Virus record (IMG/VR): IMGVR_UViG_2541047753_000004
Length of the DNA stretch: 54,394 bases
Direction: 5' to 3' (one strand)
DNA from: a virus
Taxonomy: Duplodnaviria; Heunggongvirae; Uroviricota; Caudoviricetes
The notes below the pieces were generated by a model. That model was not told the origin of the DNA. It did not search any database and saw nothing but the letters and a program-made list of their open reading frames with translations. This document shows positions 24,057-28,362 of the stretch, piece by piece. Numbering within the stretch: the first letter of the stretch is position 1; each line of letters opens with the position of its first letter. The position numbers and the translations under genes are program-made.

Positions 24057-24222
24057 TTATATCCCCTCTTTGGTGCACGCTTACAATGCGTAAAAAAGCC
24101 TCGCATTAGCGAGGCTCGTTTATATCTTGAAGGTGAATACTTATTGTCTTATCTATCCACGGGAAACATTAAGATTATTACACCCGTTAGTTGGGAAATA
24201 AAACAAAATGCAGGTGGTTTAT

Positions 24223-24447
24223 TTATTCTTTGCTGATTGCTTTCTGAATGGCATCGGCTAATGGTTCAATTAAGCCAATAGCTGCTTTTAATTCCTGTTC
24301 AAATTTTGCACTTGTAGCCTGACCACCTGCAGAAGAAAGTGAGGCCTTAACTAATTCAAGGGCAGCTTGAACAGCTATAACCCTCTGTTTTTGAGCTTGA
24401 GTTACAGGCTGAGCACCTATTCCTGAAGGGAAATAATTCTCTAACAT
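24223..24447 (-). CDS. Small hypothetical protein
   Basis: 74-aa helical ORF between lysis cassette and HNH gene. Confidence 0.3.
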   Translation of the reverse strand: MLENYFPSGIGAQPVTQAQKQRVIAVQAALELVKASLSSAGGQATSAKFEQELKAAIGLIEPLADAIQKAISKE

Positions 24448-24714
24448 TACAACCTCCGTATTAAAAAGTGAGGTTACACATTACCCTTAAGATTACTCTT
24501 AGTGAAGAGGTATCTCATAATTATCACCCTTACCAATAACGCTTGATGAAATTTGTAATGGACTGGCTCTTATTTCAACGCAACCACTTACCGCGCGCCA
24601 GATGCTTAACCTCAAACATTAGCAATGAGATGTTTAATCTGAATCCACTCCAGAAGTAATCACCACTCTGTCTACAGGGCCTGATGTGAAGGATGATGAG
24701 TAAAATTATCGCTA

Positions 24715-25176
24715 TCATCGAAGGCATTGCGTCCTGATGTACTCCTGCAGGTAGTTAACCTGTGCGGTTATCCTGTCGATTCCACTTCGGAGACGGTAAT
24801 AATTGAGTTCAGCATCTGCTGTAAGTCCTGGGCTTTCTCCATCGCCCATGCCGCTGGCTCTGGTCGTTGATTTTGCACAGGTGGCGGCGACTTGCAGGCG
24901 CTTACGCCCAGAAGAAACATCAGCACGGAGACTTTCGATAGTCGCGTTAGCATCAGCAAGCTCCTTTGTGTATCTGGCGTCAAGTTCTGCTACGTCACGT
25001 TGACGCTTCTGCATATCAGAGATAGTCGCCATAGCCGAATCTAATGCCATAGCATTCTCATCACGCTGCTTTTTGTATTCGATGGCTTTGCTGTGGTAAT
25101 AATTTGCTGAACAGATAAAAGAACCAATGACAGTAACGAAGAATGCAGCGATAACCAGCTTATAGCTCAACTTCAT
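24715..25176 (-). CDS. Rz: i-spanin Rz
   Basis: 153 aa, N-terminal TM then coiled coil; ...YKKQRDENA...DMQKRQRDVAELDARYTKELADA closely parallels lambda Rz. Confidence 0.85.
   Translation of the reverse strand: MKLSYKLVIAAFFVTVIGSFICSANYYHSKAIEYKKQRDENAMALDSAMATISDMQKRQRDVAELDARYTKELADANATIESLRADVSSGRKRLQVAATCAKSTTRASGMGDGESPGLTADAELNYYRLRSGIDRITAQVNYLQEYIRTQCLR
24768..24983 (-). CDS. Rz1: o-spanin Rz1 (embedded in Rz, +1 frame)
   Basis: Lipobox LLGVSAC followed by Pro-rich segment; fully embedded in Rz. Confidence 0.7.
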   Translation of the reverse strand: MTPDTQRSLLMLTRLSKVSVLMFLLGVSACKSPPPVQNQRPEPAAWAMEKAQDLQQMLNSIITVSEVESTG

Positions 25177-25636
25177 TTACCACCCCGCCAGCCTCTTTGA
25201 ATCGGGCAATCAGGTCACCGATTTTATGTTCATACTGACCGTAACCAGCGCCCGGCAGTGAAGCCCAGATATTGCTGCAACGATCGATAGCCTGACGAAT
25301 ATCGCCGCGATCAATCATCGGTAAAGCGCCACGCTCTTTAATCTGCTGCAATGCCACAGCATCCTGGCTTTTTGGAGAGAAGTCTTTCAGCCCAAGCTGC
25401 TTGCGGTAAGCATCCCACCAGCGTGAAAGAAGTTGATAACGGCCTGCAGCTGTTGATTTGAGTTTGGGGTTTAGCGTGACAAGTTTGCGAGGGTGATCGG
25501 AGTAATCAGTGAATAGTTCACCACCGACAATAATATCATAACCGTGGTTACGTGTCGGTTGTCGCCCGTTATCCGTTCCTTCTGACCATGCCACCATATC
25601 GAGGAAAGCTTTACGCTGAGGATTAAGATTTTGCAT
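25160..25636 (-). CDS. R: Endolysin, lambda R-like lytic transglycosylase
   Basis: 158 aa; QRKAFLDMVAWSEGTDNGRQPTRNHGYDIIVGGELFTDYSDHPRK nearly identical to lambda R as I recall it. Confidence 0.9.
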   Translation of the reverse strand: MQNLNPQRKAFLDMVAWSEGTDNGRQPTRNHGYDIIVGGELFTDYSDHPRKLVTLNPKLKSTAAGRYQLLSRWWDAYRKQLGLKDFSPKSQDAVALQQIKERGALPMIDRGDIRQAIDRCSNIWASLPGAGYGQYEHKIGDLIARFKEAGGVVNEVEL

Positions 25637-26027
25637 TTTTCACCCCTGTCAGTCGTTCCCAGAAGTACGTCAGTGCAACCGAACCCATCGCACCACTAAT
25701 CCCCGCTGTCGCGAGAATCATGTAAATACTGAATCCACTTTCGATGCTGATCAGGCCACCAATAACACCGGTGAATCCTGATACCACTATCTGAGCCAGA
25801 GCATTTATCCAACTCCACGTTGCTTTACTCTGCTTCACATCTATCAGGTAGCGGACCAGACCGCCCCAACCTGCGATGATCAGCAAAACGAGCCAGAACG
25901 CTCCAGCAAGATTCTCTTTTTCGTGCATATGAATAGCCGCAGTTTCGCCTCCGACAGAAAATCGGAGCGTGAAATGATATGTTGATTTATTATTAATTCG
26001 AAAATTACATTCTAATTCATCAGGCAT
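25623..26027 (-). CDS. Holin
   Basis: Immediately upstream of endolysin; three hydrophobic helices; true start may be the internal MHEKEN at 25928. Confidence 0.7.
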   Translation of the reverse strand: MPDELECNFRINNKSTYHFTLRFSVGGETAAIHMHEKENLAGAFWLVLLIIAGWGGLVRYLIDVKQSKATWSWINALAQIVVSGFTGVIGGLISIESGFSIYMILATAGISGAMGSVALTYFWERLTGVKNAKS

Positions 26028-26044
26028 TGATGATTTTATAATAA

Positions 26045-26069
26045 TAAAGGCCGTTCGTTACGGCCTTTA
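26045..26069 (-). terminator. Intrinsic terminator-like hairpin between cargo gene and holin
   Basis: AAAGGCCG ttcgtta CGGCCTTT with T-rich flanks. Confidence 0.5.
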
Positions 26070-26079
26070 TTATTGATAT

Positions 26080-26415
26080 TTATTTTACATCCCAAGGTAG
26101 TTCCTCAAGAGAGAAGACTAATTCATTATCAATAATTTCGTATTCTGCATAACCTTCAACCTCTCCTGAGAAGTTATTGTCAACGCATCCTTCATAATAG
26201 CTATATGGTGCTATAAAGTGAAACCCATATTCATCTATCTCTGTGATTTCAAAATTGTAGTAATCGTAAGAATATCGAATATCATCATCAGAAATAGAAC
26301 TAAGTACATAGTTATTAAATTTATCGGAATGCTTAACGATAAGCTCTGACAACGCGTCAAGATTCTCTGGAGAGATATTTCCTAACGGTAATCTGTACTC
26401 AACGGCATTAATCAT
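26080..26415 (-). CDS. Hypothetical acidic protein (late-operon cargo gene)
   Basis: 111 aa, AT-rich codon usage unlike flanking phage genes, strong SD AAAGGAGG; between Q-associated terminator and holin. Confidence 0.5.
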   Translation of the reverse strand: MINAVEYRLPLGNISPENLDALSELIVKHSDKFNNYVLSSISDDDIRYSYDYYNFEITEIDEYGFHFIAPYSYYEGCVDNNFSGEVEGYAEYEIIDNELVFSLEELPWDVK

Positions 26416-26472
26416 ACAACCTCCTTTTTAACTGATATGGGGTTATATAATGTGTTTCAGTACAAGTAAATA

Positions 26473-26495
26473 AAAACCCGCTCAACAGCGGGTTC
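26473..26495 (-). terminator. tR'-like intrinsic terminator downstream of Q
   Basis: Minus strand AACCCGCTGTTGAGCGGGTTTTTATTT. Confidence 0.55.
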
Positions 26496-26540
26496 GTGAA
26501 AATTATCAACGGCAGACATACAAAGCCCATCGTTGAGAAA

Positions 26541-26569
26541 ATCTTATCCATATTTTTTGAAAAATGCAA
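26541..26569 (-). promoter_or_regulatory. Candidate late promoter pR' (-35 TTGCAT, 17-nt spacer, -10 TAAGAT)
   Basis: Sigma-70-like hexamers read on the minus strand between Q stop and terminator. Confidence 0.35.
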
Positions 26570-26600
26570 GCTTCATGTCGCCATCTTCGGCGAAAATCAC

Positions 26601-27359
26601 TTATCTCGTCACCTTTCTCAATTGTGTTTCAGCATATGCTTCTTCCTGCCAGCACTTTGTTACCAGTTTATCAATGACGTCTGCATATCCTTTGTACCAC
26701 TGATAATCAGTCAGGTCTGGAACCAGCTTCTGGACATGACGTCGTGCCAGTGTAGTTGGTAAACGGCTAAACCGGTTTCCATTGCAACGCCCACAAATCT
26801 TATAAACAGGCGTGCCATGAAGCCGGGTCCTTTTTTCATCCAGGACAATACCTTTACCCTTACACCCTCTGCACGCTGTGCTGACTTCTCCCTTACCATG
26901 ACAATGCTGGCATAGTTCCTTCACCCACTCTTCCTTGATAACAGATTCCCCGCTTCTGGAGTGTTTCACCACCTCGCGCAATACATTATGAAATCCAGTA
27001 CCAGCACAATGCTCACAGCGAGCCTTACTTGCCGCAGACCTGGAATAATCAGCAAAGGCAAAATTCACAAGGTAAGGAATGATCTGTAGCCGGGTTTCTT
27101 CACTCAATTTATTCAATGTCGGGTTATCCAGTGCCATCGCGTAATTGAGCAGACCTTCAATCGCAAACTGAGGATCCTGAACACCAACTTTTGCCAGGAA
27201 TAAGGCAAACCCAAGCGGTGCTTTCGACTGCACCATCCCCTGCGCAGCCATCACATCCGTAATCGTTAAACCACCAGAGCCTGTCGCCGGTGCGTCATCG
27301 CTCAGTTTTGGAGATTTCGGGGAGTAATATTTCGGTAAGGCTTCAAGGTTCATGCTCAT
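26601..27359 (-). CDS. Q: Antitermination protein Q (phage 82 Q-like family)
   Basis: 252 aa with repeated CxxCxGxG zinc-finger motifs; located before late promoter/terminator and lysis genes. Confidence 0.7.
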   Translation of the reverse strand: MSMNLEALPKYYSPKSPKLSDDAPATGSGGLTITDVMAAQGMVQSKAPLGFALFLAKVGVQDPQFAIEGLLNYAMALDNPTLNKLSEETRLQIIPYLVNFAFADYSRSAASKARCEHCAGTGFHNVLREVVKHSRSGESVIKEEWVKELCQHCHGKGEVSTACRGCKGKGIVLDEKRTRLHGTPVYKICGRCNGNRFSRLPTTLARRHVQKLVPDLTDYQWYKGYADVIDKLVTKCWQEEAYAETQLRKVTR

Positions 27360-27366
27360 TCTCCAC

Positions 27367-28362
27367 TTACGCCAGTACGCCTATTGCCAGCGCACGATCG
27401 ATAAAACGAAATATCAGCTCCAGCTGGGAACCATACTTCTCTTCAAATGCCACGGTATCCGCATGCAGCTCGTCGTGATGCTTTCTGCACAAAGGCAACA
27501 CAAAGAGGTCATGCGCTTTTGTACCCATTCCCCCCTGACCGTGGCCTATCAGGTGGTGGGGATCATCAGCAGCCTTTCCACAACATGCACACGGCTGTGT
27601 CTTAACCCAGCGTGTGTACTTTTCATTAACCCAGCGGCGACGTTTTGGGCGTAACATAAAAGACTCCGGCGACTCCGGATCCACTTTCAGCGCCAGCACC
27701 TTTTTCGCCTTATCCTGGATGATGCTGGTGGCAGGAACCGAAGGCACAAGGTCACTTTCCCGGGTGACAGACGGCACAACAGGCTTCGGTAATCTCAGTG
27801 CCTTACGGGCTGCACTTTCCGGTAAGGCATCCGCCAGGTCATTACGAATCAGCCACCAGCACAGTTCCGGCATTGTCACAACGTGACTATCATCAAAACC
27901 GAGATCCCGACGCACAACAGACAACACCCAGCGGGCACAGTTATCCGTTGCCATTGATTCCAGCCGTTCCGTGAACTGATCGCGCAGCTGGTTATCGCAG
28001 TGCCAGCACAGACGGATTGCGCCCGGCGCGTGTCGCATTGTTGTCATGTTCTCGCTGTGCCAGTCGGAATGAGGCCACTGGCAGCCTTTTTCACGAAGTA
28101 ACCAGCTTTCAAGACATTCCACGCCACCAGCACGACGGATCACTGCCTCATTGCGGAACACGGCCCGAACGTCAGGATCATCCGCCAGCGGTTGTGATGC
28201 CGCCGGAACAGCACCACTGGCGAAAGATGAATAACGTTCCGGCTCAGGCTCCAGCAGGACACGCCCCTGCATAAACAGGGGCATCAGCTCTGAACCTGGT
28301 CTGAACAATACGATCCCCATACGCGGGGCAATTTCAGGGGTCAGTAGTGCTCTCACGGTCAC
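27367..28362 (-). CDS. DUF968-family prophage protein (YdfU-like)
   Basis: 331 aa with C-terminal Cys/His cluster CACCG...HHLIGHG...CRKHHDELH; position in nin-like region. Confidence 0.6.
   Translation of the reverse strand: MTVRALLTPEIAPRMGIVLFRPGSELMPLFMQGRVLLEPEPERYSSFASGAVPAASQPLADDPDVRAVFRNEAVIRRAGGVECLESWLLREKGCQWPHSDWHSENMTTMRHAPGAIRLCWHCDNQLRDQFTERLESMATDNCARWVLSVVRRDLGFDDSHVVTMPELCWWLIRNDLADALPESAARKALRLPKPVVPSVTRESDLVPSVPATSIIQDKAKKVLALKVDPESPESFMLRPKRRRWVNEKYTRWVKTQPCACCGKAADDPHHLIGHGQGGMGTKAHDLFVLPLCRKHHDELHADTVAFEEKYGSQLELIFRFIDRALAIGVLA

Follow-up and report, generated by a model that had tools for sequence, protein, structure and literature searches.

The IMG/VR virus record IMGVR_UViG_2541047753_000004 (Caudoviricetes), a stretch of 54,394 nucleotides (nt) called the window below, carries a gene for a strongly acidic protein of 111 amino acids (aa) between the gene of the late antiterminator Q and the lysis genes. 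The gene (26080..26415, minus strand) belongs to phrog_13663, a family of unknown function. All elements described here lie on the minus strand in the order Q, late promoter pR′, intrinsic terminator tR′, open reading frame (ORF), hairpin and lysis genes. Since the same Q module is followed by other cargo in SfV, mEp460 and the Stx2c/Stx2k phages, the gene is part of an AT-rich accessory (moron) cassette of ~0.5 kb, which homology junctions and GC content place at 25961..26471 (minus strand). On balance, we favour the interpretation that this is a self-contained moron at the tR′ joint, which would be expressed late under the drive of Q and would encode an acidic stoichiometric binder or decoy.

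The slot that holds the cassette is occupied by different genes in related phages. Specifically, positions 26700-26472 of the window, which cover the 3′ end of Q, pR′ and tR′, are 91–93% identical to SfV, mEp460, Lys8385Vzw and phiSTEC1575-Stx2k, and likewise to fifteen Stx2c-converting phages, and all these matches break off at the end of tR′. Downstream of the shared module, SfV carries orf47 and a DNA methylase gene; mEp460 carries a gene for a 138-aa lipoprotein, an orf47 homologue and a methylase gene; and the Stx2k phage carries the same lipoprotein gene, small ORFs, three tRNAs and stx2AB, followed by the lysis genes. The holin gene of the window has a 97% identical copy in an O157:H7 prophage, located directly after a different Q with no ORF between. 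The stx-equivalent late position, which an earlier sequence-only reading had proposed, is thus literal, down to the Q-pR′-tR′ module that is ~92% identical in the Stx2c and Stx2k phages. The corresponding Q-to-lysis interval of SfIV (orf47–49) has been described as a moron slot (PMC3851460). Additionally, mEp460_051 (L004 3390-3806) and Stx2k_33 (L002 4381-4806) represent an AT-rich moron with a GC content of 0.38–0.39 that comes first after tR′, and their product is a lipoprotein of 138–141 aa with the lipobox LVGCAG.

The limits of the cassette were defined by comparing complete genomes of Escherichia coli. Of 5,426 such genomes, 3,095 share one flank or the other and 131 contain the middle piece. 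Across the 3,095 genomes the homology on the Q side ends at ~26461-26472 and that on the holin side starts at 25960, and these junctions therefore delimit a prophage-type-specific unit at ~25961-26471, roughly 0.5 kb long. The copies in the 131 genomes are all at least 99% identical. In E. coli, 133 places carry the gene, one of them plasmid-borne, and strain T309.Ta3 has two copies; ATCC 11775, NU14 and GE3 are among the carrier strains. The closest relatives, with 72% and 69% protein identity, reside in Salmonella and Citrobacter prophages, where they follow a different Q (192 aa, PF06576/PF06530) and precede holins of PF16931 with PF05449 in Salmonella and of PF04971/PF16080 in Citrobacter. 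DNA similarity between the window and the Salmonella locus is confined to 26495-26066, from the tR′ hairpin to just beyond the stop codon, at 71% identity. A more distant member lies in the Citrobacter prophage L013, within a 513-bp insert between homologues of SfV orf47 and orf48 (methylase). The Salmonella boundaries and the L013 insert thus indicate that the cassette moves as a unit of ~0.5 kb. No transposase was found in the cassette, and no flanking direct or inverted repeats suggesting transposition were found.

The left joint of the cassette is tR′ itself, as the SfV-type module homology stops at 26472 and the Salmonella cassette homology begins at 26495. This joint often falls at a tR′ hairpin of the form AACCCGC...GCGGGTTTTT, which is common to phages with unrelated Qs. 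The hairpin AACCCGC-loop-GCGGGTTTTT is nearly identical behind Qs of unrelated families in the window and in L005, L015, L019, L022, L034 and L040. Its coincidence with the module junctions suggests that it serves as a recombination joint for the exchange of late-region cargo. In the window and the 15 family loci measured, the gene has a GC content of 34–42% versus 45–53% in the flanks. The cassette is an extra gene that is variably present, has a distinct composition and brings its own downstream terminator; it fits the classical definition of a moron (in the Hendrix/Juhala sense) and, as lambdoid morons go, it is of an ordinary kind and occupies a cargo slot already known. What is new here is the protein family, which is uncharacterised, under purifying selection, mostly strongly acidic and highly faithful to the Q-to-lysis position.

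The gene is well equipped for expression. A Shine-Dalgarno (SD) sequence, AGGAGG, is located at 26425-26420, 4 nt 5′ of the ATG. The ORF has a GC content of 33.6%, versus 49.3% for the window, and the composition profile shows a trough of 0.31–0.35 exactly over 25900-26500, with flanks at ~0.48–0.55. The 111-aa product has an isoelectric point (pI) of 4.05 and a net charge of −19 (24 Asp and Glu versus 5 Lys and Arg), contains 12 Tyr and, according to its sequence properties, has no hydrophobic or membrane segment. At the 3′ end of the cassette, the hairpin at 26040..26074 (ΔG −20.2, z −8.0) has perfectly complementary arms of 15 nt, and it is interpreted as a bidirectional intrinsic terminator because an A-tract lies upstream and a T-tract downstream. 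The surrounding 3 kb contains 10 terminator-like sites, versus 2.6 ± 1.6 in shuffled sequences, and an Rfam scan of 25400-27400 gave no significant RNA family. The next gene is the first of the lysis cassette and encodes a LydA-type holin (25623..25928, minus strand; PF16083, E 1.5e-21), with the start as in the RefSeq annotation of E. coli GE3. These results bear out the sequence-only reading, which had described an AT-rich 111-aa gene with a strong SD, a second hairpin at 26045-26069 and then the holin. A mechanically called holin ORF (25623-26027, minus strand) is 33 codons longer upstream than the annotated start at 25928; the extension consists of cassette-derived AT-rich DNA, is not conserved in the O157:H7 holin copies and is probably not translated.

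Upstream of the cassette, the Q gene (26601-27359, minus strand) encodes a protein of 252 aa that matches PF03589 (E 3.8e-54), PF00684 (E 3.3e-07), phrog_127 (E 4.8e-109) and lambda Q in PDB entry 7UBM (E 1e-38). This Q of the lambda-Q type contains an internal DnaJ-like CXXCXGXG zinc-finger segment at about residues 110–195, which is not evident as such in lambda Q (207 aa). The pR′ promoter of lambda comprises a −35 element, a −10 element and a −10-like element that causes the sigma-70-dependent pause where Q loads. The window has the same arrangement at 26529..26569 (minus strand), with the −35 element TTGCAT at 26569-26564, the −10 element TAAGAT at 26546-26541 and the pause element AACGAT at 26534-26529. 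Its sequence, TTGCAT-17 nt-TAAGAT-TTTCTC-AACGAT-GGG, with AACGATGGG downstream of the −10 element as in lambda, aligns without gaps with lambda pR′, TTGACT-17-TAAATT-TGACTC-AACGATGGG (AACGAT-GGG), and from the end of Q to the hairpin the region is near-identical to SfV. A generic promoter scan missed pR′ because just 7 of 12 consensus positions match; the homology to lambda pR′ is, at the level of sequence, better evidence for a promoter than a consensus scan. The tR′ terminator (26469..26495, minus strand) consists of a hairpin at 26495-26474 with a 9-bp GC-rich stem, followed by a U-run; its ΔG is −14.9 kcal/mol (z −5.6), and none of 200 shuffled sequences was equally stable. Given a start near 26534, the terminated pR′ leader would be ~65 nt long, for comparison with the 194 nt of lambda 6S RNA. 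The sigma-70-like promoter after Q and the strong terminator, placed beforehand at 26473-26495, are accordingly both present.

We then compare the position of the gene across 47 related loci (L001, L005-L016, L019-L024, L026-L044 and L045-L053), a few of which duplicate others. In 44 of them it is flanked by Q on one side and by the lysis genes on the other. In 40 of the 47, the end of Q is at most ~260 nt upstream and the lysis genes come next, while in four the gene is again between Q and the holin, farther from Q and with other morons alongside. Two of the other loci belong to a decayed Erwinia tracheiphila prophage and one to a chromosomal, non-phage setting. The Qs comprise three Pfam types and a 204-aa protein without a Pfam match that occupies the Q position after NinG, and the holins belong to three families (PF16083; PF16931 with PF05449; PF04971/PF16080). 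Given this variety, the protein cannot be dedicated to a single Q or a single holin as its partner. The position is compatible with a functional need at the start of the late phase or with a recombination hot spot at tR′. The members outside intact prophages, L007/L008 (Erwinia tracheiphila) and L009 (a Logan contig), have ~1 kb of non-coding DNA on each side; with net charges of −8 and −11, they may be domesticated copies. Additionally, reverse-strand genes of 140–289 aa without a Pfam match occur in the Q-to-lysis interval of several loci (L015 5627-6220, L016 3071-3691, L010/L013 2476-4030), and in one case such an insertion splits a holin gene. These could be defence-type morons in a non-contiguous operon arrangement.

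The product defines a small and narrowly distributed protein family. It matches phrog_13663 over its full length (residues 1–111 of 111, E 9.4e-54), and all 26 aligned members match this family and nothing else. A word-indexed search gave five clusters, an exhaustive profile search of 1.84 billion representatives gave 26 hits at E ≤ 1e-3, including two spurious repeat proteins, and a second indexed search with a wider profile gave 27 proteins, each named 'hypothetical', from Escherichia, Shigella, Salmonella, Citrobacter, Enterobacter, Erwinia and Duffyella. The profile hits to proteins of 2,661 and 435 aa were rejected as repeat or low-complexity artefacts, such as DUF11 repeats. Family members are about 110 aa long (106–118 aa), and relatives at 25–40% identity align with few gaps. 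Invariant residues are F33, D45, R47, Y48, G76, C77 and W108, and the shared motifs are DxRY, Y[YF]xGCxDxN and L[DE]ExxW. The net charge is −15 to −22 in 23 of the 26 members; the three exceptions are less acidic, with −8 and −11 for the two chromosomal copies in Erwiniaceae and −9 for the third. The ratio of non-synonymous to synonymous substitution rates (dN/dS) among relatives is 0.11–0.28, with synonymous sites saturated between the window and the Salmonella copy, and the ORF is, by its pattern of conservation, a real gene under purifying selection.

Searches for similarity to characterised proteins were consistently negative. Scans of the window protein against Pfam, NCBIfam and PADLOC stayed at noise level. 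When all 26 members were scanned, Pfam and PADLOC likewise gave nothing, the best Pfam match being PF03460 (E 0.016, below the cut-off); in PADLOC the window protein had no match and one of the 26 members a weak one (E 0.004). PDB sequence searches with profiles of 4 and 26 sequences returned no match with E < 0.1. The gene was not found by tblastn at E ≤ 1e-3 in 50,697 GenBank phage records, and scans of the species-representative genomes of GTDB (185,579 species) gave no relatives, so that we regard it as a sporadic prophage accessory gene. Literature searches on the accession, a peptide string and the PHROG identifier found no paper. The description of the protein as strongly acidic and of no recognised family therefore holds, phrog_13663 being its only family match. 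The first ORF after lambda tR′, orf-64, was considered as a relative and rejected as unrelated (hhalign probability 0.15%). In P0005, a 134-aa protein from a 920-bp ENA contig, the first 47 residues are those of the window protein, and a BspA-type leucine-rich repeat (PF13306) comes next; an assembly chimera is the probable explanation, although it could be a natural fusion.

To describe the likely fold, we used an AlphaFold model built from the 26-sequence alignment (mean predicted local distance difference test, pLDDT, 87.6; predicted template modelling score, pTM, 0.79). The predicted order is one strand, two helices and a five-stranded antiparallel meander (β-α-α-β5), with disorder limited to the last four residues, which include the invariant W108. 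The product is predicted to be a soluble, cytoplasmic, single-domain α+β protein with a cystatin/NTF2-like roll, and since the N-terminal strand precedes the helices in the model, its topology is nearer to cystatin than to NTF2. A Foldseek search of BFVD yielded no match at E ≤ 0.001. Neither sequence nor fold showed similarity to toxin families, and the product bears no likeness to Stx; it is not a toxin. The label 'cargo' given by the sequence-only reading is apt for the gene, without extending to similarity with any toxin. From the properties of the protein and its context, the most economical model is probably that it binds a basic partner stoichiometrically or acts as a decoy for it, the partner probably being one that binds nucleic acids, and our leading guess for its role is late-stage counter-defence or host takeover.

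The region between tR′ and the gene suggests a second layer of regulation. The stretch from tR′ to the ATG is 71% identical between the window and Salmonella despite the saturated synonymous sites, and the identity is unevenly distributed. Specifically, the tR′ stem and U-run match at 21 of 24 positions, ATTTAC[T/A] at 6 of 7 and the following spacer at 9 of 16; then TATATAACC matches at 9 of 9, the next 15 nt at 5 of 15 and the SD region at 8 of 10. The conserved blocks of the window clade form a promoter-like element, TTTAC[T/A]-17-TATAAC, with the hexamers kept and the spacer diverged. In the window this candidate cassette promoter occupies 26442..26470 (minus strand), with TTTACT at 26470-26465 and, after 17 nt, TATAAC at 26447-26442; a consensus scan did not call it because the −10 element lacks the final T. 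At the corresponding region, the main clade has TTGACA (or CTGACA, TTGGCA), a spacer of 15–16 nt and TAnnnT. The promoter-like element also accompanies the gene in the L013 insert, where the cassette sits elsewhere in the slot.

The same region may control translation. The TATATAACC block can pair with GGTTGTATG, occluding the SD and the AUG in a possible leader hairpin at 26413..26449 (minus strand). In the window its minimum free energy is −9.3 kcal/mol with a marginal z of −1.8, and relatives reach z values of −2.4 to −4.9. Its arms, just upstream of the gene, vary by clade (TATAACC/GGTTATA, ATCCAC/GTGGAT and TTTCACC/GGTGAAA among the window, L019, L022, L010 and L013). On the other side, a terminator follows the gene in the clades checked, formed by unrelated sequences, with analogous hairpins in L019, L005 and L012. 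Terminators have no effect on the Q-modified polymerase. Since one is nevertheless conserved downstream of the gene, terminator-sensitive polymerase presumably passes over the gene and has to be halted before the holin. Together, the anatomy strongly implies Q-dependent late expression, and Q-independent expression is possible from the promoter-like element with the cassette's own terminator. The earlier proposal of expression dependent on Q stands as far as the late-slot anatomy goes; dependence on Q alone is less certain, given the conserved promoter-like element downstream of tR′ and the terminator.

These findings can be combined into a model. A cassette of ~0.5 kb, composed of the promoter-like element, a strong ribosome-binding site (RBS), the ORF and the bidirectional terminator, sits precisely at the tR′ joint, where the late operon of this E. 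coli prophage of the SfV/e14-like lambdoid kind begins. Transcripts from pR′ would stop at tR′ in the lysogen, ~65 nt after their start. Upon induction, Q would load onto RNA polymerase at pR′, where the lambda-like pause element AACGAT is conserved, and the modified polymerase would read through tR′, the cassette and the cassette terminator into the holin, endolysin and Rz genes. The acidic protein would then be the first late product and abundant. These induction steps rest on the anatomy and on what is established for Q in lambda. The promoter-like element would add a low level of transcription independent of Q, which the cassette terminator would keep from reaching the lysis genes. The acidic protein would act as a decoy or inhibitor by binding a partner that is basic or binds nucleic acids. 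A bolder version, which we put forward only tentatively and rate as unlikely, is that phrog_13663 is a new family of Q-gated acidic decoys. These would be made early in the late phase, ahead of the lysis and virion proteins, and would neutralise an immunity factor of the host or of a rival prophage, or a nucleic-acid-binding host protein, that would abort late development, with the dose tuned by the leader hairpin and a weak private promoter.

Several observations weigh against this Q-driven binder model. We infer both the Q dependence and the promoter activity from the sequence. The cassette promoter of the window is only a candidate because its −10 element, TATAAC, lacks the usual final T, and the TATAAC block can also be explained as the 5′ arm of the RBS hairpin. 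The conserved position may simply come from frequent recombination at the tR′ hairpin that the phages share, and the lipoprotein moron, which mEp460 and the Stx2k phage carry there, favours at least some part for such a hot spot. Additionally, the protein shows no similarity by sequence or fold to known DNA mimics, anti-defence or defence proteins, so that the binder or decoy role is drawn only from size, charge and context, and no partner defence gene lies beside the gene.

The most serious competitor, which we hold to be possible and clearly less probable, is a lysogenic-conversion moron. It would be transcribed in the repressed prophage mainly from its own sigma-70 promoter, up to its own terminator, and Q read-through would be incidental. 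The benefit would go to the lysogen, in which the protein might, for instance, exclude or abort other phages or modulate a host regulator. Its anatomy is classic (AT-rich, with a promoter-like element and its own terminator), the upstream element travels with the gene to the orf47-methylase site, and a downstream terminator conserved in position and not in sequence makes no sense unless polymerase that still responds to terminators crosses the gene. Outside intact prophages, copies of lower acidity persist in Erwiniaceae, and morons are viewed as expressed in lysogens (PMC3851460). However, the −10 element of the window without its final T, and the main-clade spacer that can be unusually short at 15 nt, speak against this reading, the possible RBS-sequestering hairpin would damp translation, and PADLOC gave no match. 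Moreover, late co-expression accounts at least equally well for the Q-to-lysis location seen in 44 of 47 loci.

The remaining explanations are much less probable. The polar residues D45, R47, Y48, C77 and E105 are invariant and cluster in loops of a Tyr- and Phe-rich protein, as might be expected of a small-molecule binder or an enzyme with an NTF2-like cone, such as a sponge for immune signalling nucleotides or a Cys/Asp-dependent catalyst; we consider this improbable, as the topology is nearer to cystatin than to NTF2 and the extreme, conserved acidity would be left unexplained. Slightly less probable still is a cytoplasmic regulator of lysis timing, such as an antiholin or holin modulator, that is co-expressed just ahead of the holin. 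The gene does lie directly 5′ of the holin in many loci, but methylase or reverse-strand genes sometimes separate the two, the same holin occurs without the gene in O157:H7 prophages and the protein lacks a membrane segment. Since three unrelated families are represented among the adjacent holins, the antiholin reading was rejected. Finally, a chance ORF or a decaying, functionless remnant, to which the lack of any family annotation might point, is effectively refuted by conservation: the dN/dS of 0.11–0.28, relatives with invariant residues, the strong SD, the E. coli copies with at least 99% identity and the confident AlphaFold model leave it a negligible chance. We thus retain the self-contained, late-expressed binder moron as our preferred interpretation.

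In the lysis cassette downstream, the holin gene is followed by the endolysin gene (25160-25636, minus strand; phrog_90, E 8.5e-63), the Rz gene (24715-25176, minus strand; PF03245, E 9e-38) and the Rz1 gene (24768-24983, minus strand), an ORF with a lipobox that is embedded in Rz. A second AT-rich islet (24100-24700, minus strand; GC 0.39–0.41) lies between Rz and the HNH/terminase genes. It contains small ORFs without a Pfam match (74 aa at 24223-24447 and 50 aa at 24575-24727) and may be another moron. Directly upstream of Q, a 331-aa DUF968/HNH-like gene (27367-28362, minus strand) is found, as in nearly all related loci, where the order is RusA, KilA-N or ANT (where present), DUF968 and Q.

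Shiga toxin is one example of the medically important cargo found in the Q-to-lysis interval of lambdoid prophages. Here, the Q-pR′-tR′ module of stx2c and stx2k phages would drive a different, uncharacterised acidic cargo in ~2.4% of complete E. coli genomes. If the product acts as a late counter-defence or host-takeover factor, it would add a family to a class with few late-operon examples; expression in lysogens would make it a candidate lysogenic-conversion factor in lineages of extraintestinal pathogenic E. coli (ExPEC). The cassette should be easy to delete or to fuse to a reporter, since it is small and well delimited.

Comparison with known systems places these features in context. Like the DNA mimics Ocr, ArdA and Arn, the protein is small, very acidic (net −19 over 111 aa) and phage-encoded. 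In contrast to them, it is predicted to be a mixed α+β roll and shows no similarity to them in sequence or fold in PDB searches, and those proteins are immediate on infection, whereas the window gene would be expressed late or from a moron promoter. The predicted fold, one or two helices on a curved antiparallel sheet, resembles the cystatin/NTF2-like rolls of VirB8-like proteins, SnoaL-like proteins and cystatins. A functional parallel is AtiEcA of phi80, a small counter-defence gene that is effective only through its place in the Q-controlled late operon and that neutralises the prophage's own Tai defence after induction (PMC11364771). The window gene is likewise a small accessory gene inside a Q-controlled late operon and would be made only or mainly after induction; unlike AtiEcA, to which it shows no homology (tblastn gave no match at E ≤ 1e-3 in the collection of 50,697 phage records), it has no adjacent divergent defence partner, and it precedes the lysis genes, whereas AtiEcA precedes the packaging module. 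Closer in anatomy are the lambdoid Q-to-lysis morons, namely SfIV orf47–49 (PMC3851460), SfV orf47/orf48 methylase and the mEp460_051/Stx2k_33 lipoprotein. These are also extra low-GC units flanked by transcription signals, variably present in homologous phages and with an identical left junction at tR′; the window cassette differs in its family, phrog_13663, in having no transposase and in a cytoplasmic product rather than a lipoprotein or methylase. The stx2 genes of the Stx2c and Stx2k phages lie ~2 kb downstream behind tRNAs, whereas the window gene encodes a single small cytoplasmic acidic protein, without similarity to Stx, directly after tR′. Both nevertheless follow a ~92% identical Q-pR′-tR′ module and precede the lysis cassette on the same strand, and the same logic of Q read-through should therefore apply to the acidic gene.

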